Shown here: one piece after another, positions 5,741 through 63,761 of the stretch
Layout: each line of letters opens with the position of its first letter
Position numbering within the stretch: position 1 is the stretch's first letter
From: Acidimicrobiales bacterium
GTDB lineage: Bacteria > Actinomycetota > Acidimicrobiia > Acidimicrobiales > RAAP-2
Reading direction: 5' to 3'
Length of the DNA: 64,000 bases
Assembly (NCBI GenBank): GCA_049801955.1
Contig: JBARLO010000056.1
Coordinates: forward strand, 6,307 to 70,306
Made by a program: the position numbers and the translations under genes
Notes under the pieces: model-generated
Databases searched by the model: none
The model's input: only the letters and a program-made list of their open reading frames with translations
What the model was told of the DNA's origin: nothing

Positions 5741-5758
5741 TTCCGGCGAGTTGGGCGA

Positions 5759-6013: not shown

Positions 6014-6809
6014 CTACGCGTTGCGCTCGTCGCGCCAGCGCAGCCACGGTGCAAGTGCGTCCAGATCGAAGTCGGGGCTATGTGCAGTGGTAACGAAGAA
6101 CGACACACCCTTGGTGCGGATGGGGTCGGCGCCGTCGAACGGATCAAAGGGGTCGCCCGCGACGAGCACCGAGCGTTCAATCTCGCCAGGGTCGCGTCCA
6201 ATCGCGGCGCAGTGTTCGTCGAGAATGCGATTCTTGCGATCGAATTCGACTCCGTCGGCCGAACGTGTGCCAGATATTGGCGTAGCGCGCCACGAGCGGG
6301 AGCGTTTTCTTCTCGCCGCCTCCGCCAATCAGGGGGGGAACACGGCGAGTTGGCGCTGGGTTGAGTTGATCCATGCGTTCGACGACGCGCGTGAGGGCGT
6401 CACCGAAGCGCGCGACGCGTAGAGCGGGAGTGGCGAAGTCGTACCCATATTCGACGAAGTCGCGTTCCTTGAAGCCGGCGCCAAGTCCGAGGATGAAACG
6501 ACCCGAGCTGATGTGGTCCAGGGTTCGCGCCATGTCGGCGATCAGGTCAGGGTTACGATACGCCGTCGCGCTGACCAACGTTCCGAACTCGATGCGCGAC
6601 GTGGATTCGGCCCAGGCGCCGAGCATGGTCCAGGCTTCGAAACTCTTGGTGTCACTGTCTCGGGGACCAAAGAAGTGGTCCCAGTTGAATACTGCGTCAA
6701 AGCCCACGTCCTCGGCTCGAGCGACGGCGTCACGTAGGGGGCCGTAGTCCGCATCGTACTGAGGTAGCTGGACGCCGACGCGTATCGGTCGAGGACTTGC
6801 GTCAGACAC
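6014..6809 (-). pseudogene. LLM class (luciferase-like) F420-dependent oxidoreductase, interrupted by a 1-nt frameshift
   Basis: ORF 6177..6809 reads ...GLGAGFKERDFVEYGYDF...LIGGGGEKKTLPLVARYANIWHTFG and then becomes junk. ORF 6014..6328 continues in another frame with ADGVEFDRKNRILDEHCAAIGRDPGEIERSV.... The junction on the minus strand is ttcGgccgac (plus about 6257-6260). Removing one g restores HTF-ADGVEF. Confidence 0.7.
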
Positions 6810-37258: not shown

Positions 37259-38887
37259 ATGCTGCGCCGCCGCCATCTGGGTCGCGTCTCGTTCGCCGAG
37301 GCGAACGATTTTCAGCGGGCGCTGCTCCAGGCGAGCGACGACTACGTCTTATTGTTCGAGCATCCTCCGACCTACACGCGCGGCGTGCGTACGCACGAGG
37401 AGAACTTCCTCATACCGCCGTCTCAGCTGAACGCGGTCGTCATTGACGCCGACCGTGGCGGGGACGTCACCTATCACGCCCCGGGCCAGGTCGTCGCCTG
37501 GGCCATCGTCACGGTGGCCGATGATCCAGCCACTGGCAAGATGCACGTTCGCCACTTAGAGGACGCGGTGATCGCCACGGTCCGTTCTTTCGATCCCGAG
37601 AGACTGCTCGGCGACGTGGGTCGACTGGAGGGCTACCCCGGGGTGTGGGCTCGACTCGACTCGCACCCGGCCAAGATCGCCGCCGTGGGCGTGCGCACTG
37701 AGCGCAATGAGAACGGACTGCGACGCACACTGCACGGCGTGGCGCTCAACGTAGACATCGATCTTTCGGGATTCGCCGCCATCGTGCCGTGTGGCATTCC
37801 CGATAAGCCCGTGGCGTCGATGACGTCGCTCGGGCTTCGGGTGGGTTCGCTTGAGGTGGAAGCCGCACTGGGCGAAGCACTCGATCGCGAGCTTGGCAGT
37901 GTGGCGCGCGTCGCGGCGGTTGACCGCAGCGCCGCGACGACATCCGACGAGCGCCCCCTTCTTCGTCGTCTGCGCAAAGCGGGCGTTGACCCCGATGCGG
38001 GTCTGGCGATCACGACGCGCAAGCCGGAGTGGTTGCGCATCGAAGCTCATATGGGCAGTGAGTATCAGTCCCTGCGTAAATTGACCGAGGACTTGAGGTT
38101 GGTGACGGTCTGTGAAGAGGCCGGGTGCCCCAACATCTTTGAGTGCTGGGCCTCAGGTACCGCGACGTTCATGGTGAATGGCGAGCGATGCACCAGAGCC
38201 TGCGGTTTCTGCCTGGTCGATACTCGTAAGCCTCTCGCGCTCGATCCCACCGAACCCGAACGTGTCGCCGAAGCGGTGGTACGCCTCAAGTTGGCTCACG
38301 CCGTGATCACCTGCGTCGCGCGTGACGATCTCGCCGATGGAGGAGCGGGCGCCATTGCGGCGAGTGTGCGCGCCATTCGCGAGCGCTCACCCGGCACCGA
38401 CGTCGAGGTGTTGACCAGCGACTTGCGCGGCGATCCCGACTCGCTGCGCATCCTCATCGATGAACGACCCGACGTGCTCAATCACAACGTCGAGACCGTC
38501 GCTCGCCTCCAGCGCGCCGTTCGCCCGAGTGCGGGCTACTTGCGCTCACTCACCGTGCTCGCGCGGGGGGCTGAGGCGGGGCTGGTCACCAAGTCCGGAC
38601 TTATGGTCGGGTTGGGTGAGAGTGCCGACGAAGTGGAAGAGACCTTGGCCGACCTGGCCGCAGTGGGCGTACAGATCGTGACCATCGGACAATACCTGCG
38701 CCCGACGGAGCGCCACTTGCCCGTCGCGCGGTACTGGGAGCCCTCGGAGTTCGACGACCTCGCTGAGCGCGGGCGACGCCTCGGTCTTCGCCACGTGCAG
38801 TCCTCGCCACTCACGCGTTCGAGCTACCACGCTCGCGAAGCGCTGAGTAACGCCACACCGGTGGCGGCACCTTCGTTGCGCCGTTAG
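37259..38887 (+). CDS. lipB/lipA: fused octanoyltransferase LipB / lipoyl synthase LipA (single 542-aa ORF)
   Basis: Residues 1 to about 205 are LipB (FEHPPTYTRG, DRGGDVTYHAPGQVV, KIAAVGVR, VPCGI). Residues from about 240 to 542 are LipA (RKPEWLRI, CEEAGCPNIFEC, radical-SAM CTRACGFC, RSSYHA). No stop codon lies between them. Confidence 0.85.
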   Translation: MLRRRHLGRVSFAEANDFQRALLQASDDYVLLFEHPPTYTRGVRTHEENFLIPPSQLNAVVIDADRGGDVTYHAPGQVVAWAIVTVADDPATGKMHVRHLEDAVIATVRSFDPERLLGDVGRLEGYPGVWARLDSHPAKIAAVGVRTERNENGLRRTLHGVALNVDIDLSGFAAIVPCGIPDKPVASMTSLGLRVGSLEVEAALGEALDRELGSVARVAAVDRSAATTSDERPLLRRLRKAGVDPDAGLAITTRKPEWLRIEAHMGSEYQSLRKLTEDLRLVTVCEEAGCPNIFECWASGTATFMVNGERCTRACGFCLVDTRKPLALDPTEPERVAEAVVRLKLAHAVITCVARDDLADGGAGAIAASVRAIRERSPGTDVEVLTSDLRGDPDSLRILIDERPDVLNHNVETVARLQRAVRPSAGYLRSLTVLARGAEAGLVTKSGLMVGLGESADEVEETLADLAAVGVQIVTIGQYLRPTERHLPVARYWEPSEFDDLAERGRRLGLRHVQSSPLTRSSYHAREALSNATPVAAPSLRR

Positions 38888-49301: not shown

Positions 49302-49552
49302 GAATTGGTCCTAGAGTGGTCGGTCAGGGCTGCGGGTGGTCTGTGGTTGAAAGTCGATGCCAGTCGCGGGCGAAACGACCCACGTAAGGCGTCCTTTGGG
49401 ACGCTGAGCATGGCGCGGTTTAGAAGTAAGTCCTACGTCTCGCTGGTCGCGGTGACCAGAGAACGAGGCGCAGGCGAGTGTGGGGTCAAAGACCAGGTCA
49501 GCACGCGCAGCCCTCCTAATCACAACCCGGGACCGGTAGGGTAAAGCACGAT

Positions 49553-52237
49553 ATGAGCGTTTTTCAGAAGATGTTGCGGGCGGGCGAGGGCAAGCGCGTA
49601 CGCGAGCTAGCCGGACTGGTCGGGCCGATCAACGACCTGGCTGAAGAGATGGCCGTGCTCAGCGACGAGGAACTCAAGGCCAAGACCCCCGAGTTCCGCG
49701 AACGCCTGGCCGCGGGAGAGACCCTGGACGACCTGCTCATCGAGGCCTTCGCGGTGGTGCGCGAAGCCGCCACGCGCGTACTCGGCCAGCGCCCCTACGA
49801 CGTCCAGCTCATGGGGGGCATGGCCCTGCACTTTGGGTGGATCGCCGAAATGAAGACTGGTGAGGGTAAGACCCTGGTGTCGACCCTGCCCGTGTACCTC
49901 AACGCGCTCGCCGGTGAGGGCGTGCACGTGGTGACCGTGAACGACTACCTGGCCACGCGTGACGCGAGGTGGATGGGCGAACTGCACCGTTGGCTGGGGA
50001 TCACTGTGGGACGGGTCGGGCCCGACCTGCCCGACTTCGAGTCCAAGCGCGAGGCCTACGCCGCCGACGTCACGTACGGCACGAATACCGAGTTCGGCTT
50101 CGACTACTTGCGCGACAACATGGCGCGGCGCAGTGAGCACATGGTCCAGCGCGGTCACCACTACGCCATTGTCGACGAGGTCGACTCGATTCTGATCGAC
50201 GAAGCGCGCACCCCTCTGATCATCTCGGGTCCCGCCTCGGACGTCACCAAGCTCTACTACCAGTTCGCCTCGATCGCTCGCTCACTCACCCGCGACCTCG
50301 ACTACGAGGTGGACGAAGAGAAGAAGACGGTGGTCCCGACCGAGGCCGGTATCGAAAAGGTCGAAAAGCAACTCGGCGTCACCAACCTCTACGACGCGGT
50401 CGCGACGAACTACGTGCATCAGTTGGGCCAGGCGCTGCGCGCCAAGGAGCTCTTCCACCGCGACAAGGACTACCTGGTGGACGCGGGCGAGGTGAAGATC
50501 GTTGATGAGTTCACCGGTCGCACGCTGGAGGGGCGCCGGTGGAGCGACGGACTGCACCAGGCCGTTGAGGCCAAGGAGCGCGTGCGCATCCAAGAGGAGA
50601 ACCACACCTGGGCGACGGTGACCCTGCAGAACTACTTCCGCCTCTATGAGAAGTTGGCCGGCATGACCGGTACGGCCGAGACGGAGGCGGCCGAGTTCGG
50701 CAACACGTACGGGCTGTCGGTGGTGCCGATCCCCACGAATCAGCCGGCCATCCGCGACGACAAGCCCGACATGATCTACAAGACCGAAGAGGCCAAGTTC
50801 GCCGCCATCGTCGAGGACGTGCATGAGCGCCGCGACACTGGTCAGCCGGTTCTGCTAGGTACTGCCTCGGTCGAAAAGTCCGAGTTGCTCTCGCGCGAAC
50901 TCTCCAAGGCCGGCATTGCCCACGAGGTCTTGAACGCCAAGCAGCACTTCCGTGAAGCCGAGATCGTGGCCCAGGCCGGGCGCAAGGGTGCGGTCACCGT
51001 GGCGACCAACATGGCCGGTCGCGGCGTCGACGTCATCCTCGGCGGCAACTTCGAGGGCCTGGCCGCGCGTGACGTGCTGGCCCAGGGCCTCACCCCGGAC
51101 ACCCCGGAGTACGACGAAGCGTACGAGAAGTCCCTCGCCAAGTGGAAGCCGATCACCGAGTCCGAAGGCAACGACGTTCGCGAGGCCGGGGGGCTCTACG
51201 TGCTCGGCACCGAGCGCCACGACTCGCGGCGCATTGACAATCAGTTACGCGGTCGTTCCGGGCGCCAGGGTGACCCCGGAGAGAGTCGTTTCTACCTATC
51301 TCTCGAAGACGAGTTGCTACGTCTCTTCGCCACCGGGGCCGTGTCCTGGGTGATGGATCGCGCCATGCCCGAAGACGAAGCCATCGAGGCCAAGATGGTC
51401 TCGCGCGCGATCGAGCGCGCCCAGAACACCGTCGAGGCCCGCAACGCGGAGATCCGCAAAGACGTGCTCAAGTACGACGAAGTGATGAACGAGCAGCGCA
51501 AGGTCATCTACAAGCGCCGCCAACAGGTGATCGACGGCGAAGACATTCACGATGCGACGATCCAACTGATCGAGGAGCGTATGGCCGACGTCGTGGCCTC
51601 GCACGTGGGCGTGGGCTACGCCGAAGAGTGGGACTTCAACGCACTCGCCCTGGACCTGCAGGCCAACTACCCCTCGGACCTGAGTGTGGAGGTGCTGCGC
51701 GAGTACAGCGACGCCGAGGACATCGGTGCGCTCGTGGTCGATGACGCGGTGGGCAAGTACGAGAAGAAGGCCGAGGACTTCCCGGGTGGCCTCGATACGG
51801 CCAAGGAGATCGAGCGCGACGTGATGCTCCAGATCCTCGACCAGCGCTGGCGCGATCACCTCTCGGAGATGGACTACCTGCGTGACGGCATCCACTTGCG
51901 CCAGACCGCTCAGCAAGACCCTCTCAACGCGTGGCAGAAGGAGGGGTACTTGATGTTCGAGCACCTCCTAGAGGCGGTCGACGCGGACTACGTGCGCTAC
52001 ATCACCCACGTCGAGGCGACCGCGGCGATCGAGGAGAGCGCCGTCGAGGACGAGGGTCTCACGGGTGCTCTCACCAACGCCAACCAAGTTGCTCCGGGCG
52101 CGACGGAACTGCCCGCACACTCCAGTGCCGGTCCGAGCGCGCCGCCCGCGGCGACTCCGCACGAGAAACTCGGCCGCAACGATCCCTGCTGGTGCGGCTC
52201 GAAGCGCAAGTTCAAGCAGTGCCATGGCCGACCCTAA
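49553..52237 (+). CDS. secA: preprotein translocase ATPase SecA
   Basis: 894 aa. Motifs include MKTGEGKTLV, the DEAD-like VDEVDSILIDEARTPLIISG, TNMAGRGVDI, and a C-terminal zinc motif CWCGSKRKFKQCHG. Confidence 0.97.
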   Translation: MSVFQKMLRAGEGKRVRELAGLVGPINDLAEEMAVLSDEELKAKTPEFRERLAAGETLDDLLIEAFAVVREAATRVLGQRPYDVQLMGGMALHFGWIAEMKTGEGKTLVSTLPVYLNALAGEGVHVVTVNDYLATRDARWMGELHRWLGITVGRVGPDLPDFESKREAYAADVTYGTNTEFGFDYLRDNMARRSEHMVQRGHHYAIVDEVDSILIDEARTPLIISGPASDVTKLYYQFASIARSLTRDLDYEVDEEKKTVVPTEAGIEKVEKQLGVTNLYDAVATNYVHQLGQALRAKELFHRDKDYLVDAGEVKIVDEFTGRTLEGRRWSDGLHQAVEAKERVRIQEENHTWATVTLQNYFRLYEKLAGMTGTAETEAAEFGNTYGLSVVPIPTNQPAIRDDKPDMIYKTEEAKFAAIVEDVHERRDTGQPVLLGTASVEKSELLSRELSKAGIAHEVLNAKQHFREAEIVAQAGRKGAVTVATNMAGRGVDVILGGNFEGLAARDVLAQGLTPDTPEYDEAYEKSLAKWKPITESEGNDVREAGGLYVLGTERHDSRRIDNQLRGRSGRQGDPGESRFYLSLEDELLRLFATGAVSWVMDRAMPEDEAIEAKMVSRAIERAQNTVEARNAEIRKDVLKYDEVMNEQRKVIYKRRQQVIDGEDIHDATIQLIEERMADVVASHVGVGYAEEWDFNALALDLQANYPSDLSVEVLREYSDAEDIGALVVDDAVGKYEKKAEDFPGGLDTAKEIERDVMLQILDQRWRDHLSEMDYLRDGIHLRQTAQQDPLNAWQKEGYLMFEHLLEAVDADYVRYITHVEATAAIEESAVEDEGLTGALTNANQVAPGATELPAHSSAGPSAPPAATPHEKLGRNDPCWCGSKRKFKQCHGRP

Positions 52238-58838: not shown

Positions 58839-60791
58839 ATGAGTACCATTCGCGGCGGTGTGGAGCAGAGTCGTGAGCGCCTGGTAGCGCTCGTCCTGCT
58901 GCTTCAGCGCGCCTGGCGCTACGGGGCGTTGACCCAAGAGGAGATCCTGCGCGAACTCACCATCGACGAGTATCCGGTGGCGGCCAAGGGTCCGCGCAAG
59001 ATCCGCGCCTACGAGGGCAGCGACTCCACGGTGCGACAGAAGTTCGAGCGCGACAAGGCGCGGATTCGCGAACTGGGCTTCGTGATCGAGACTGTGGTGA
59101 ACGACGACGGTCTGGTGGGCTACAAGATTGACCCGTCGAGCGGCTACGCCCCGCCCATCTACTTCACCCGTGACGAAGAGCGAGTGGTTCGCCTGGCCCT
59201 TCGATTTTGCGGGTTCGGTAAGTCGGGGGCCTTTAGCGTCTTTAATGACGTCGCCGCGAGTGACGGGGGGCTCGAGGCCTCGAACTACTACACCCCCGTG
59301 CTGCGGGCCCTCAATCTGCATCGAGTTCTTTCGTTCGACTATCTCTCGGCGGTCAATAAGACCCGCGAGGTCGAACCGCTGGTCATTGACGTCTTTAACG
59401 GTGCGAGCTATCTCGTGGCCCGAGTGCGCGAGACGCGCGAGATCAAGGGGTATCGCTTCACCCGCATGACCTCGATGCCCGAGGTCCTCGACGAGAAGTT
59501 TGAAGCGACGGAGAACGACGTGGAGGTAGCTCGAGCGTGGCGCCCGGAGTACGCCAAGTCGCTCCTGCCCTTTGACGTGGTTGTCGCCACCAACGAGGAC
59601 TACGCCGATCTCCTCGTGCGCCAGTACCCCCAGGCCGTCGCCACCGCGAAGAAGAACGGTTCGGTCGAGGTTGGCATGACCTTCGAGAACCCGAGGGCGG
59701 CGCTGCGCTTCGTGTTGGACGGGGCCGATCGCGTGCGCCTCCAATCACCCAAGTCGCTCCGGTCCGAACTTGAGGGGTGGTTGGGTGACGTCAACCGCGG
59801 CGACGTGCCACCGGCGTCGCAGCTGGTCTTTGAGTCCGCGCCCGCCAACGACGTCCTCGGCCAGACTCTTCAGCTGCTGCACGCGGTGTACGCGAGCGAC
59901 GACGGCCTGAGCATCAGCGAACTCTCACGGCGTTTTTCCCTGTCGCCCGACCACGTGCGACTCATCATGGACCGACTGGTCTCCCTGGAGCCCATGGCCG
60001 ATTCGGTCGATGGCACGAACCGGTTTCCCGCCCACGTGCTCAAGGAGTGCGACGACTGGGACGACGAGGCGAATGATGACTCGTTGTACCGTGCGGACTT
60101 CTCGGACCTGCCCGAGGGCAGCGACGACCCCTCGGCGTTCATGTGGCGCGACCTGTTCGAACTCAACATCGCTCTGCGCGAGGCGTCGCGCCTCTACACC
60201 GACCCCGCAATCTTTTCGGCGATCGAGAAGATCGAGCGAACCACGAGCGCGCCGGTGCAGGTGGAAACGACGTCCAACGAATCGCTCCTCAAGCAGGTGG
60301 AGGGCGCCATCGAGACCAAGTCGCAGATCAAGATTGTCTACACCTCGAGTGAGAGCGATGAGGCCACGACGCGCGCCATTGAGCCGCGCGAGGTGAAGGT
60401 TCTCAACGGTCACACCTACGTGCGCGCCTACTGCAACTCGCGCGAGGCCTGGCGGACCTTTCGAGTCGATCGGATCAAGGACGTGGTGGCGACGTCACCC
60501 GCACCGTCGCGGCCCGAAGATCCGGTACCAAACTGGCTCACCCAAGTCGGCGAAGAGGGCGACGAGGTGATCGTGATCGTGCACGCCGACAACCGGTGGC
60601 TCTTTGAGCCGCTGCCGGGTGCGGTGTGGCGCACGCTTAACGATGGACGCCACGCCGTGAAGTTTCGCGTGAGCGAGCCGCGCTTTCTCGACTACCTGAT
60701 GCTGCGCGCCGGGCCGGGATCGGTGGTGGCGACCGAGAAGTACGCGCTCGCCGGACACGAGCTGGCGCGCAAGATAGCTGCACAGCTTTAG
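58839..60791 (+). CDS. fused PafB/PafC-type transcriptional regulator (two tandem wHTH-WYL modules)
   Basis: Module 1 reads ERLVALVLLLQRA...LTQEEILREL...RQKFERDKARIRELGFVIE, with a WYL-like beta domain VLSFDYLSAVNKTREVEPLVIDVFNGASYLVARVRETREIKGYRFTRM. Module 2 reads LQLLHAVYASDDGLSISELSRRFSLSPDHVRLIMDRL, with WYL IKIVYTSSESDEATTRAIEPREVKVLNGHTYVRAYCNSREAWRTFRVDRI. Start at ATG 58839. Confidence 0.8.
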   Translation: MSTIRGGVEQSRERLVALVLLLQRAWRYGALTQEEILRELTIDEYPVAAKGPRKIRAYEGSDSTVRQKFERDKARIRELGFVIETVVNDDGLVGYKIDPSSGYAPPIYFTRDEERVVRLALRFCGFGKSGAFSVFNDVAASDGGLEASNYYTPVLRALNLHRVLSFDYLSAVNKTREVEPLVIDVFNGASYLVARVRETREIKGYRFTRMTSMPEVLDEKFEATENDVEVARAWRPEYAKSLLPFDVVVATNEDYADLLVRQYPQAVATAKKNGSVEVGMTFENPRAALRFVLDGADRVRLQSPKSLRSELEGWLGDVNRGDVPPASQLVFESAPANDVLGQTLQLLHAVYASDDGLSISELSRRFSLSPDHVRLIMDRLVSLEPMADSVDGTNRFPAHVLKECDDWDDEANDDSLYRADFSDLPEGSDDPSAFMWRDLFELNIALREASRLYTDPAIFSAIEKIERTTSAPVQVETTSNESLLKQVEGAIETKSQIKIVYTSSESDEATTRAIEPREVKVLNGHTYVRAYCNSREAWRTFRVDRIKDVVATSPAPSRPEDPVPNWLTQVGEEGDEVIVIVHADNRWLFEPLPGAVWRTLNDGRHAVKFRVSEPRFLDYLMLRAGPGSVVATEKYALAGHELARKIAAQL

Positions 60792-60821
60792 GCGACCGTT
60801 GGGCCCCGAAGGGGGTGATCG

Positions 60822-61898
60822 GTGCTTCGTCTCATGGCGCGTCGAACCAACGACGTTACGTACTTCACCAACGACGCCGCGCACGAGCTCGATGGGCTGC
60901 GCCGCGGCGGGCCCGGGTGGTGGCTGCGCGGTGAGGGCGATACGCGCGACCCTTCTGACGTCGCCCGGGTGCTCACGACGAGCGAGCGCTCTCACGTCTG
61001 CGGCTACGACCTCATCGTTGCCGCCCCGCGGCCCTTCTCGGCACTCCTTGCGGTCGATCCCTTCCACGCACGTGGGCTCGTGGACGCCCACCGGGCTTCG
61101 GTGCGGGCGGCCGTTGACTATCTCGAAGATCGAGCGGTCGGGGTACGCGAGCAGCGCCAGGGGGAGGTCAGCGACCGAGCGGCGCGCTGGGAGAGCATCG
61201 TGGCCTTCACCCACGGTGTCAACCGACACGGTGAGCCGCACCTGCACGACCACGTGTTGGTGGGAGCTCGACCCACCGGTGAACGTAACGTCCTGGACGC
61301 GCGGGCGCTGTACGCGCACTCGATGGCGGCGGACGCCCTCTATCGCGCCTCGCTGCGTCACGAACTCGCGACCCGGACTCCTTGGAGCGCGTGGCGTTCC
61401 TTCGAAGGCGTGGAGCGAGTCGTTGACCTCGACGAAGGGTACCGAGCACTCTGGCCCGGACACCACCGCGAGCGAGGAGAGAAACTGTCGTGGTCGAGAG
61501 ATGACACCCTCCGTGCGTGGGCGAGCGATCTCGGGCGCTTTGAGCCACTGGGCGCCGTGGACGCTCCGCCTCGGGGTCGCGCGGTTCTCGATGAACACCG
61601 TTTCTCAGGCGCCTTCGAAGGTCGCTACGACGTCGCGCGCCGACATGTGGTTGCCGCGTGGGCGGACGCGGCAACTTTCGGACAGGATCCTCGCGATCTC
61701 CTGCACCAGATCGACGTGATGTATCCGCGAGCTCGCGAGCGCGCGGGCGTGTACGAGCCCACGATGTCGGTGCGCGATGCTCGCTCACTGGCCGTCGTGT
61801 CCGAGCACGGACCTCGACCGCTCGAGAGCACTCAGTTCCAACTCTGGCGCGAGCGCTCACTGGACACGTCGCGAGTGCGCGACGGTCGCTCCAGGTAG
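60822..61898 (+). CDS. TrwC/TraI-type (MOBF-like) relaxase-domain protein without a helicase domain
   Basis: His-triad block IVAFTHGVNRHGEPHLHDHVLVGA and an N-terminal Tyr (DVTYFTND). GTG start 6 nt after GAAGGGGG, 30 nt downstream of the WYL gene stop. Only 358 aa. Confidence 0.7.
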   Translation: MLRLMARRTNDVTYFTNDAAHELDGLRRGGPGWWLRGEGDTRDPSDVARVLTTSERSHVCGYDLIVAAPRPFSALLAVDPFHARGLVDAHRASVRAAVDYLEDRAVGVREQRQGEVSDRAARWESIVAFTHGVNRHGEPHLHDHVLVGARPTGERNVLDARALYAHSMAADALYRASLRHELATRTPWSAWRSFEGVERVVDLDEGYRALWPGHHRERGEKLSWSRDDTLRAWASDLGRFEPLGAVDAPPRGRAVLDEHRFSGAFEGRYDVARRHVVAAWADAATFGQDPRDLLHQIDVMYPRARERAGVYEPTMSVRDARSLAVVSEHGPRPLESTQFQLWRERSLDTSRVRDGRSR

Positions 61899-63148
61899 CG
61901 CTGAAAGCGCGGCTCGCGAAACGCGGGCGTGAGTTGGATCCACTGCAGCTGATTCTGCGCATTGAGTCCCAGGGCGTGGCCCGTTCGACCTTGGGCAATG
62001 TCGCTCATCGACAGCCGATCGCGCTCGATCCACGTCATTGTGTGCCCCGTGGCGCGACCCTTTGTGTCGCGCTGCACACTCGGGGATGCGACCAGATCTC
62101 GTCCCGCCAGATGACGCAGCGTCTCGAGCGTGGGACGATCGGCGATGCCGCCAAGCACGACGGTGGCGGGAAAGAGCGAGAGAAACCCCTCGGCGGTAGT
62201 GCCCCAACGGGCTCGCGCCTGGGACAGGTCCTGGAGGCAGGCCAGTGTGAGAACGCCTTGCCCGCCGCCCTCGGACACGATTCCGGGCAGTCGCGGCAGG
62301 GGAGCGACGTTGGCGAGTTCGTCCAACGCGAGCAGTAGCCGCGCTCCTTCATGATGGTGGTCGTAGGTGGCGTGAACGATCTCTTCGATGAGCCCAACTA
62401 CCAGGGGAATCGAGACGGCCTGGTGGCGACTGGGCGAGACGATATGCAGTTGGTGGGGCCCGCGCAGGAACTCCTCCACGTCGAGTGGCGCCTCGCGGGC
62501 CGAAGCCCGAGCGGCCTCGGTTCGAACACCCGCGAAGAGTCCCGCGGTGGTTGACCAGATGCTCGATCGCTCCCGCTCTTCGGTTGCGAGTACTCCGCGC
62601 AAGAGTGTCACCGCGGGGTGGTGATCGCCGTGATGTTCAGCGAGTTCGTGAACGAGGTCATCGCCCCGTCGTTCATCCACCCGACTCGCAAGTTCACCCA
62701 ATGACTCCTCGCGTAGAGCACACGCGTGCATCATTGGCGCGACTAATGCGCCCGCTCGCTCACTCCAGTGGTCGTCGCTTCGCTCTCCTCGACCACGTCG
62801 CGCGACGTCCAAAAGACTCCGCGCAGCTAAAACAGCGCCATCCCAACTTGAAGATTGTCTTAGAGGTGAGTATCCGACGCGATACACACCGGGTGGCGTT
62901 TCGACCGTTCCGGATGGATCAAAGAGCAACGTGGTGCCGTTACGACGCGCACGTGACATCATCGATACGACATCATTCTTCGTTGATGTGATGACGCAAG
63001 AATGATTTGTCATCAGGAGATTCGGAATGATGATCGACGTTGTCTTTCCACTACGCGTGGGACCTAAGACGAGTGTCGAACGTTCGTGTCCACTCGTTGC
63101 ATCACCGTGTGCACCTCGACCTAAGTAGATGCCACGCGTCGAACTCAC
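61832..63148 (-). CDS. VirD4/TraG-type type IV coupling protein-like ATPase with no TM anchor
   Basis: Walker A context LVLGPTRSGKTTSIIIPNLL, then LLFDPSG, DDHWSERAGALV, and Walker B LLLALDELANVAPLP...GGGQGVLTLACLQDLSQ. No hydrophobic N-terminal segment. GTG start at 63148. Confidence 0.8.
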   Translation of the reverse strand: MSSTRGIYLGRGAHGDATSGHERSTLVLGPTRSGKTTSIIIPNLLMTNHSCVITSTKNDVVSMMSRARRNGTTLLFDPSGTVETPPGVYRVGYSPLRQSSSWDGAVLAARSLLDVARRGRGERSDDHWSERAGALVAPMMHACALREESLGELASRVDERRGDDLVHELAEHHGDHHPAVTLLRGVLATEERERSSIWSTTAGLFAGVRTEAARASAREAPLDVEEFLRGPHQLHIVSPSRHQAVSIPLVVGLIEEIVHATYDHHHEGARLLLALDELANVAPLPRLPGIVSEGGGQGVLTLACLQDLSQARARWGTTAEGFLSLFPATVVLGGIADRPTLETLRHLAGRDLVASPSVQRDTKGRATGHTMTWIERDRLSMSDIAQGRTGHALGLNAQNQLQWIQLTPAFREPRFQRYLERPSRTRDVSSERSRQSWN

Positions 63149-63437
63149 TCAGACCATCGGTCGTAAAACTTTCGCAAATGCTTGACATTGGTGTGAAGAA
63201 CGACTGAACTTTTAGATGTCCTTCTGCGGAGGAGGTCTACGTTGTCGCTTGCGTTGCGTGCAACGCAGGACGTAGTCATCATCCGCGTGAGGGCCGTGCA
63301 CTGCGATCAGTCGTTGCACAGTCGTGAGACTGGGTGGCACATGAGCGAGTACATGACAGATCAAAACGGTGACTGACTGTTCGGAACAGAGATTCCAAGT
63401 CCCCATTTGATTCAACGTTGAGTCCCAAGGAGGGAAA

Positions 63438-63701
63438 GTGGCACCAGCCGCGAAGAAGAAGGCTCCGGCCAAGAAGGCCCCAGCCAAGAAGAAGGCAGCC
63501 GCCAAGAAGGCTCCGGCCAAGAAGCGTGCCGTAGCGAAGAAGGCTCCCGCCAAGAAGCGTCCGGCCGCCAAGAAGGCTCCCGCCAAGAAGCGTGCGGCCG
63601 CCAAGAAGGCTCCGGCGAAGAAGAAGGCCGTAGCCCGTAAGGCTCCCGCCAAGAAGCGCCCGGCCGCCAAGAAGGCTGTCAAGCGTGCGGTGAAGAAGTA
63701 A
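63438..63701 (+). CDS. Lys/Ala/Pro-rich histone H1-like repetitive protein
   Basis: 87 aa of (A)KKAPAKK(R/K)xA(A/V) repeats. GTG start 7 nt after AAGGAGG. A strong terminator hairpin follows. Confidence 0.7.
   Translation: MAPAAKKKAPAKKAPAKKKAAAKKAPAKKRAVAKKAPAKKRPAAKKAPAKKRAAAKKAPAKKKAVARKAPAKKRPAAKKAVKRAVKK
63447..63680 (+). repeat. in-frame tandem repeat, unit about 33 nt (about 6 copies)
   Basis: GCC AAG AAG GCT CCN GCC AAG AAG CGN NNN GCC recurs with small variations and encodes AKKAPAKKRxA. Confidence 0.8.
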
Positions 63702-63729: not shown

Positions 63730-63761
63730 CACTCGAGGGGGTCGAAAGACCCCCTCGAGTG
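63730..63761 (+). terminator. stem-loop terminator candidate (14-bp perfect stem, GAAA loop, no T-tract)
   Basis: CACTCGAGGGGGTC-GAAA-GACCCCCTCGAGTG lies 29 nt after the stop of the histone-like gene, between convergent genes. Confidence 0.6.

Follow-up and report, generated by a model that had tools for sequence, protein, structure and literature searches.

A conserved chromosomal gene trio in Acidimicrobiales joins a PafBC-type regulator to a helicase-less relaxase and an anchor-less coupling-protein-type ATPase

In a 64,000-nucleotide stretch of an Acidimicrobiales bacterium genome (assembly GCA_049801955.1, contig JBARLO010000056.1, forward-strand positions 6,307 to 70,306; hereafter the window, with coordinates counted from its first letter) we analysed three adjacent genes, encoding a fused PafBC-type regulator, a relaxase of the TrwC/TraI type and an ATPase related to the type IV coupling proteins (T4CPs) of conjugation. 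All three genes descend vertically at a single housekeeping locus, and purifying selection on them is as strong as that on dxs and moaC. Compared with their mobile kin, the relaxase has lost its helicase and second catalytic tyrosine, and the ATPase its membrane anchor. The trio is very probably a selected chromosomal host module, neither a mobile nor a decaying element. On balance, we explain it as a plasmid-type mobilization (MOB) module that was exapted, fixed in the chromosome of an Acidimicrobiales ancestor and kept as a host function together with the PafBC-type regulator of that lineage. The evolutionary part of this explanation is well supported, and the biochemical role is one that we infer. 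The trio is laid out as follows.

58839–60791, + strand: fused PafBC-family regulator with two winged helix-turn-helix (wHTH)-WYL-WCX modules, 650 aa (Pfam and PDB sequence matches)
60792–60821, + strand: 30-nt spacer with the Shine-Dalgarno sequence GAAGGGGG, the likely pafBC-trwC operon junction (read from the sequence)
60822–61898, + strand: relaxase-domain-only TrwC/TraI-type HUH trans-esterase, 358 aa, GTG start (Pfam, alignments, structure model and Foldseek)
61832–63148, − strand: T4CP-type (VirD4/TrwB/TraG) P-loop ATPase, predicted to be soluble, 438 aa, lacking the N-terminal membrane domain (Pfam and NCBIfam)
61832–61898, no strand assigned: 67-nt antisense overlap between the convergent 3' ends of the relaxase and ATPase genes (open reading frame coordinates)

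An initial annotation of this locus, made from the letters alone, had described three open reading frames (ORFs) of these sizes and orientations, a 30-nt gap with a strong Shine-Dalgarno sequence ahead of the relaxase gene, and the motifs HGEPHLHDH, GPTRSGKTTSIIIPNLL and LALDELANV. All of these were found in the ORF list and the translations, and the domains it had proposed (WYL, TrwC, T4SS-DNA_transf and TraG-D_C) were all matched in Pfam. The GTG start of the relaxase gene lies 30 nt past the TAG stop of the regulator gene, with GAAGGGGG in between, and the two genes are presumably co-transcribed. In about 50 of 56 close loci their spacer measures 25–33 nt and carries a Shine-Dalgarno sequence. 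The 3' overlap of the relaxase and ATPase genes amounts to 37–67 nt in about 49 of the same 56 and to roughly 0 nt in distant loci. On the moaC side the trio is preceded in the window by dxs, a glyoxalase-like gene, a Zn-ribbon gene and moaC, and on the other side it is followed by a gene for an 87-aa basic protein; ORFs and Pfam matches thus agree with the housekeeping flank and the histone-like gene that had been annotated.

We scanned one genome per species and analysed the best 80 loci. Both the relaxase and the ATPase have many homologues, whose length stays constant, and every one that carries an organism name comes from an Acidimicrobiales metagenome-assembled genome (MAG). In about 55 species-level loci, at 44–89% relaxase identity, the order is Zn ribbon-moaC-PafBC-TrwC-T4CP-basic protein-cofC-rnhB, with the T4CP and cofC genes reversed. 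About 20 distant loci, at around 30% relaxase identity, keep PafBC-TrwC-T4CP and, further on, cofC in the same order and orientation. Four relaxase relatives at 27–34% identity, recovered by an exhaustive search, again lie in the order dxs-tldD-pmbA-moaC-PafBC-TrwC-T4CP, the last gene reversed. The contigs of the relatives reach 1.3–5.5 Mb, and gene calls inspected over 8–10 kb on each side gave prfB-ftsEX-msrB-dxs-(tldD/pmbA)-Zn ribbon-moaC on one flank and basic protein-cofC-rnhB-opp on the other. The initial annotation had asked whether the three genes keep this order elsewhere and in what context: they stand in the same housekeeping context in over 70 loci of the order, at relaxase identities as low as 27%. 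At L052 and L055 (the complete 2.6-Mb chromosome OY969792.1) tblastn finds only fragments of the trio and of the housekeeping genes around it. Decay of the trio was rejected as the cause, because the flanking housekeeping genes are equally fragmented, and frameshift-rich long-read assemblies are suspected instead.

Sequence conservation of the trio was compared with that of its neighbours. Over 52 loci the median identity to the window was 79.0% for dxs, 77.7% for moaC, 74.7% for the T4CP-type ATPase, 72.2% for ftsX, 65.8% for the WYL regulator, 60.7% for the relaxase, 55.7% for rnhB and 52.0% for cofC. The ratios of nonsynonymous to synonymous substitution (dN/dS), calculated by the Nei-Gojobori method for ten close pairs, were 0.03–0.11 for the regulator, 0.07–0.17 for the relaxase and 0.03–0.10 for the ATPase, with dxs at 0.03–0.10 and cofC at 0.12–0.27 for reference. 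Inactivating changes in relatives had been named as a possible sign of simple decay. The catalytic residues proved invariant, and the overall range of 0.03–0.17 is level with that of the neighbouring housekeeping genes. These values exclude decay. The spacer and the overlap are themselves preserved in the close group.

One of the two readings offered by the initial annotation was a decayed or mobilizable element, taken here as an integrative and mobilizable element (IME) or the remnant of an integrative and conjugative element. The trio resembles IMEs, which typically carry a relaxase and a coupling protein, in having both without a mating pore, and its ATPase gene has the lowest G+C content at third codon positions (GC3) of the locus; chromosomal MOB genes as such are on record (PMC3158045). 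Unlike IMEs, the trio has no integrase or att sites; it stays at a fixed place, descends vertically and is under strong purifying selection. Neither an integrase nor a type IV secretion system (T4SS) is encoded in the 64-kb window or within 8–10 kb in any relative's locus, the window contains no tRNA gene, and no att-like direct repeats flank the trio. Thirty other large ORFs in the window encode housekeeping functions throughout (penicillin-binding protein, Lgt, Suf, lipoate, biotin, SecA and others) and the extended flanks in the relatives hold housekeeping neighbours only, which agrees with the earlier remark that no integrase or mating-pore gene is visible. The same site is occupied in more than 70 loci spanning 27–95% identity, with the low dN/dS and invariant catalytic residues already given. 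The synteny and selection data refute the mobile or decaying element, which we regard as hardly credible. The other reading of that annotation, a domesticated DNA-nicking/ATPase pair, is supported by the synteny, the selection and the absence of mobile-element genes.

The relaxase retains its catalytic Tyr, Asp and His triad. Pfam TrwC matched the protein at 2e-24, but covered profile positions 55–203 of 286 only, and its score lies below the NCBIfam MobF cut-off. When aligned with TraI from the PDB, residues D63, H131, H142 and H144 fall on D81, H146, H157 and H159 of F TraI, the His triad has the spacing H-x10-H-x-H, and Y14 occupies the N-terminal catalytic position. These five residues are invariant in 16 close (A1), 26 diverse (A2) and 36 mixed (A4) homologues, confirming the annotated His triad and N-terminal Tyr. 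Residue 22, eight positions after Y14, is an invariant Glu, leaving a single Tyr where MOBF relaxases have two Tyr positions, Y18 and Y26 in TrwC and Y16/17 and Y23/24 in TraI. An AlphaFold2 (AF2) model built from the 36-sequence alignment reached a pLDDT (predicted local distance difference test) of 88.5 and a pTM (predicted template-modelling score) of 0.90. Foldseek returned 27 significant PDB matches for it, all of them TrwC/TraI trans-esterase domains, which cover about 295 of the 358 residues at a probability of 1.0 and a target-normalised TM-score (TMt) of about 0.6. There is no helicase match in Pfam, and the model is accounted for by the relaxase domain and a short tail. As modelled, the protein is a relaxase domain with a short tail and no helicase; its length of 358 aa, Pfam and the AF2/Foldseek results all uphold the earlier description as helicase-less. 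The C-terminus is an Arg-rich tail ending in GRSR, in which R356 and R358 are invariant, and which recalls the signals for export that depends on VirD4 or other T4CPs.

With the MOBF relaxases (TrwC of R388; TraI of F, pKM101 and pCU1) the window protein shares the HUH trans-esterase fold, the catalytic Tyr, the Asp and the His triad. It differs from them in having no helicase, one Tyr and a shortened N-terminal region, and in being encoded by a chromosomal, vertically inherited gene without a T4SS. Identity to plasmid MobF relaxases is 27–36%, the nearest being those of small mycobacterial plasmids. Distant-lineage relaxases at the same locus match Pfam TrwC at 1e-69 over the full profile and TrwC in the PDB at 2e-23.

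The second enzyme of the trio matched T4SS-DNA_transf (1e-22), TraG-D_C (2.4e-14) and TrwB_AAD_bind (2.9e-6) in Pfam, with NCBIfam matches as well. Among 63 sequences its Walker A (GPxRSGKT) and Walker B (aLDE) motifs do not vary, nor do several others, and the VirD4/TraG-type identity assigned from the letters holds. The same annotation had called the ATPase anchor-less. Its maximum Kyte-Doolittle hydrophobicity over 19 residues is 1.41, at an internal position. In the closest plasmid homologue (608 aa) the N-terminus is longer by about 165 residues, which include two hydrophobic segments at 1.8–2.05. Relatives agree on the start, the sequence ahead of the start codon being either interrupted by stops or not conserved, and the label is thereby confirmed. 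Judged by its sequence, the protein is a soluble, N-terminally truncated T4CP. Like other T4CPs (TrwB, VirD4, TraG/TraD) it has a P-loop domain with Walker A and B motifs, an all-alpha domain and a TraG-D_C region; unlike them it lacks the membrane domain of about 165 aa found in plasmid relatives, has no linked secretion channel and is conserved at the level of housekeeping genes. The nearest plasmid relatives are the T4CPs of 14–21-kb Mycobacterium and Rhodococcus plasmids, at 35–37% identity. An AF2 model of the ATPase was poor (pLDDT 55, from a shallow alignment).

The codon composition of the ATPase gene stands apart from that of its neighbours. Its GC3 is the lowest of the locus in nearly all genomes; in the window it is 0.64 overall and 0.48–0.56 in codons 1–200, against 0.80–0.83 for dxs, moaC and the WYL gene. 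The deficit is systematic over the loci (median 0.69 versus 0.82–0.83), despite vertical inheritance.

A further observation, which takes in C-termini from L056–L089, concerns the ends of the two enzymes. These are alike within a lineage: both close-group proteins finish with -RSR, and those of the distant group mostly with -(L)GR. In the window the shared motif lies at 61884–61898 and 61832–61850. Within the close group the likeness is partly forced by the antisense overlap, which places GRSR and the stop opposite YLERP. The distant group shows it despite an overlap of about 0 nt, so that the overlap is no explanation there.

For the 650-aa regulator, Pfam recognised WYL in two stretches (3.5e-28) as well as WCX, in accordance with the two wHTH-WYL modules first proposed. 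Its best sequence matches in the PDB are the PafBC of A. aurescens (6sj9, 1.8e-11) and the mycobacterial PafB (8e-11) and PafC (4e-10). Less-derived orthologues at the same locus show HTH_PafC, WYL twice and WCX twice, and the orthologue at L066 aligns over its full length with 6sj9 (6e-36) and matches PafC at 2e-34; these results uphold the PafBC-type assignment. Since the less-derived lineages match TrwC and PafBC in full length, the window relaxase and regulator are derived members of one old, vertically inherited locus.

PafBC of mycobacteria turns on a DNA-damage regulon once its WYL domain binds single-stranded DNA (ssDNA). The window regulator shares with PafBC the two HTH-WYL-WCX modules, here in one chain of about 650 aa; Mycobacterium has separate PafB and PafC, and 6sj9 of A. 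aurescens is a natural fusion. It differs in being divergent (E value of 1.8e-11 to 6sj9) and in lying between moaC and the relaxase gene in all loci, outside the Pup-proteasome locus. A PafBC-like regulon and ligand are putative assignments for this copy. Canonical pafBC sits in the proteasome locus, and Müller et al. (2019) used the Pup-proteasome location to confirm orthologues (PMC6789036). PMC11804915 gives ssDNA as the PafBC signal, and the promoter box recognised is tGTCgg-N10-tANNNT (PMC8635444).

A second, paralogous arrangement links the same protein families. An unfused pafB-pafC-trwC series was found in at least 10 further loci of the order (L062, L065, L070, L074–77 and L081–83), for example at positions 5748–9101 of L065. 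The pafB-like gene encodes WYL and WCX (322 aa), and the pafC-like gene HTH_PafC, WYL and WCX (325 aa; PafC in the PDB at 1.9e-34). Directly 3' of the latter lies the gene for a helicase-less TrwC-domain protein with a full-length Pfam match. No T4CP gene occurs within 8 kb, and the gene context differs from that of the trio. The relaxases of this second type end in -G(L/M/F)G(L/F/I)G. That PafB/C and TrwC are paired twice independently speaks for a working partnership of relaxase and regulator, beyond mere adjacency, and the second arrangement, which has no ATPase, ties the relaxase to PafBC instead of to conjugation. The recurring pairs may further point to an old functional unit of PafBC-type regulators and relaxases, possibly the mobile-element origin of PafBC itself.

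These pairings also bear on the possibility that the three genes are coincidental neighbours, PafBC being the general damage regulator of the lineage, the pair having an unrelated host role and the gene order being frozen. The whole region is syntenic, including the unrelated moaC and cofC, and there is no PafBC box at the ATPase gene, both as expected of chance neighbours. Set against this are the conserved spacer of 25–33 nt with its Shine-Dalgarno sequence before the relaxase gene, and the other, non-syntenic arrangement, where a PafB/PafC-type pair lies directly 5' of a TrwC-type gene. We consider coincidence quite unlikely.

The helicase, second Tyr and anchor that the relaxase and the ATPase have lost all serve processive transfer through membrane channels. 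This loss and the link to PafBC lead us to favour, tentatively, intracellular ssDNA processing linked to the PafBC response as the role of the pair. In such a mechanism Tyr14 and the metal site of the His triad would cut ssDNA at a specific site or hairpin, the enzyme staying joined to the 5' end. The ATPase, as a soluble hexamer, would engage the relaxase-DNA complex, possibly via the Arg-rich C-terminal tail, and pump the strand within the cytoplasm. The pair could then act as an effector of the PafBC response, processing or repairing DNA that is damaged or stalled; alternatively, it could generate or handle the ssDNA signal of PafBC. A functional analogy is provided by the archaeal HerA-NurA system, an FtsK/HerA-class translocase with a nuclease, which likewise combines a soluble ring ATPase, of the same superfamily, with a DNA-cutting enzyme to process DNA inside the cell; the nuclease partners are not homologous, and there is no evidence of end resection for the window pair.

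Several observations weigh against such an intracellular, PafBC-linked role. To our knowledge, relaxases and T4CPs act jointly only in channel-mediated export, and the Arg-rich tail of the relaxase resembles export signals. In an alignment of 47 loci there is no conserved PafBC-type box (tGTCgg-N10-tANNNT) 5' of the ATPase gene, and no nic site or oriT-like target was found. The canonical location of pafBC, in the proteasome locus, is not that of the present regulator (PMC6789036). Finally, all genomes examined are MAGs.

The main rival is accordingly a chromosome-resident system for DNA export or transfer, in which the relaxase would nick an oriT-like site and the T4CP would deliver the DNA to a channel encoded elsewhere (a T4SS, an FtsK/TraB-like or ESX-type system, or a partner that anchors the ATPase). 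Its outcome would be damage-inducible DNA secretion, or chromosomal transfer like that of Hfr (high frequency of recombination) strains. Both hallmark MOB proteins have been kept together, tail to tail, in all trio loci, and the T4CP retains the all-alpha and TraG-D_C regions that bind the relaxosome or DNA. The invariant Arg-rich tail resembles VirD4-dependent signals, and anchor-less T4CPs that dock on a partner protein are known from Gram-positive plasmids. On the other hand, no channel genes lie within 8–10 kb in any locus, the ATPase has no membrane domain, and the helicase and second Tyr, which serve processive transfer and termination in mobile relaxases, are absent. The paralogous pafB-pafC-trwC arrangement does without a T4CP, and the trio is kept in small genomes too, such as the 2.6-Mb complete chromosome. 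We judge export unlikely, but less so than the other rivals.

Defence had been named in the initial annotation beside DNA damage and export as a possible role. Here a WYL-regulated relaxase would cut incoming ssDNA of plasmids or phages (conjugative or replication intermediates) with the help of the ATPase. WYL regulators frequently adjoin defence systems (PMC9122601), the WYL models of PADLOC match the regulator, and a nuclease with an ATPase is a common layout of defence systems. PADLOC, however, reported no defence system: the relaxase had no match, the ATPase matched mad8 at an E value of 0.002, and the regulator matched generic WYL models only. The regulator belongs to the PafBC family and is not of the BrxR/CapW type, and the conservation is that of housekeeping genes, neither patchy nor fast-evolving as in defence islands. 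A fixed locus that occurs across the whole sampled order, with no PADLOC system match, makes defence the least likely of the three roles, and we consider it very improbable.

Full-text literature searches turned up no report connecting a relaxase/T4CP pair with PafBC or with WYL regulators of this type, none on a conserved chromosomal relaxase in Acidimicrobiia, and no such module among domesticated or orphan relaxases. The parts belong to known families; the core chromosomal module, its specific losses and its association with PafBC appear to be undescribed. The presence of relaxases and coupling proteins is taken to be diagnostic for a mobile element, and MOB typing tools and NCBI annotation label them 'MobF relaxase' and 'conjugative DNA transfer protein'. 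In Acidimicrobiales, which are abundant in soil, peat and freshwater, these genes behave as core chromosomal genes conserved like dxs, a caution for metagenomic work that genes of this kind are not proof of conjugative or mobilizable elements. The trio offers a clear case of exaptation of conjugation enzymes, whose predicted activity is ssDNA cleavage and joining with ATP-driven translocation.

The signal of PafBC, which mediates a LexA-independent damage response, is ssDNA, and this is also the substrate of relaxases. If the connection between PafBC and the HUH enzyme is true, it would give a new angle on how a damage response is triggered or executed outside mycobacteria. In its widest form, the proposal is that a whole actinobacterial order uses a domesticated conjugation front end, made of a single-tyrosine HUH relaxase and a soluble coupling ATPase, as a core part of an ssDNA-sensing PafBC pathway, or for damage-triggered export of chromosomal DNA. 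We put this forward as a possibility with the balance tilted against it; if true, it would amount to a new, non-conjugative mechanism of DNA damage response or DNA processing, or to a damage-triggered export route.

Three further features lie beyond the ATPase gene.

63149–63215, no strand assigned: conserved divergent promoter region, a candidate (alignment of 47 loci)
63216–63437, + strand: probable structured RNA leader of the basic-protein gene, a syntenic neighbour (RNAalifold)
63438–63701, + strand: 87-aa basic protein with Lys/Ala repeats, divergent from the ATPase gene, a syntenic neighbour (ORF, weak HC2 match)

The 290-nt region between the ATPase and basic-protein genes is conserved above the level of many proteins. 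RNAalifold predicted 56 pairs on the + strand at 63216–63437, of which 35 are compensatory. Of the alignment cells, 93.5% are paired, versus 33–42% in slid controls, and none of 500 shuffles reached the observed values. G-U cells (168) far outnumber A-C cells (23), which indicates an RNA on the + strand and disfavours the hairpins as an oriT. The conserved region matched no Rfam 15 family, either at the gathering or at an E-value threshold. In the last helix UCCC pairs with GGGA of the basic-protein Shine-Dalgarno sequence, which is thereby partly covered. The structured RNA is probably the 5' leader of the gene for the Lys/Ala-rich basic protein. This protein has an isoelectric point of 12, and small ORFs occupy its place in close and distant relatives; the distant locus L088 encodes a protein with AKKAPAR repeats.

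Two putative promoters in 63149–63215 are assigned from conservation only. On the + strand TTGACA (63187–63192)-N18-GAACTT is a conserved candidate in the 47-locus alignment, and on the − strand the ATPase gene has the candidate TT(G/C)ACA-N17/18-GAnnnT. A scan with consensus promoter and terminator models gave nothing useful in the locus and did not call these candidates. The sequence TGTCAA-N10-AAGTTT 5' of the window ATPase gene fits tGTCgg-N10-tANNNT but was rejected as a PafBC box, its −10 part not being preserved in relatives; a better reading of the conserved ATGTCAAGCATTT is as the reverse of a TTGACA −35 element belonging to the divergent basic-protein/RNA promoter. An inverted repeat at 60673–60698 and 61892–61917 was put down to chance; it reflects a peptide likeness, EPRFLDYL versus EPRFQRYL, that is not kept in relatives.

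Directly after the basic-protein gene, at 63730–63761, stands a perfect 14-bp inverted repeat with a 4-nt loop (CACTCGAGGGGGTC...GACCCCCTCGAGTG), likely a terminator hairpin without a T tract; it bears a weak, sub-threshold likeness to DUF3800-XI RNA. Elsewhere in the window, the + strand carries a raiA RNA motif at 49330–49510 (Rfam RF03072; its 139 bits exceed the gathering score, 101.3), directly 5' of secA (49553–52237). A 542-aa ORF on the + strand at 37259–38887 joins an LplA-B_cat lipoyl/octanoyl transferase domain to a radical-SAM lipoyl synthase and adjoins the E3/E2 genes, apparently as a LipB-LipA fusion.

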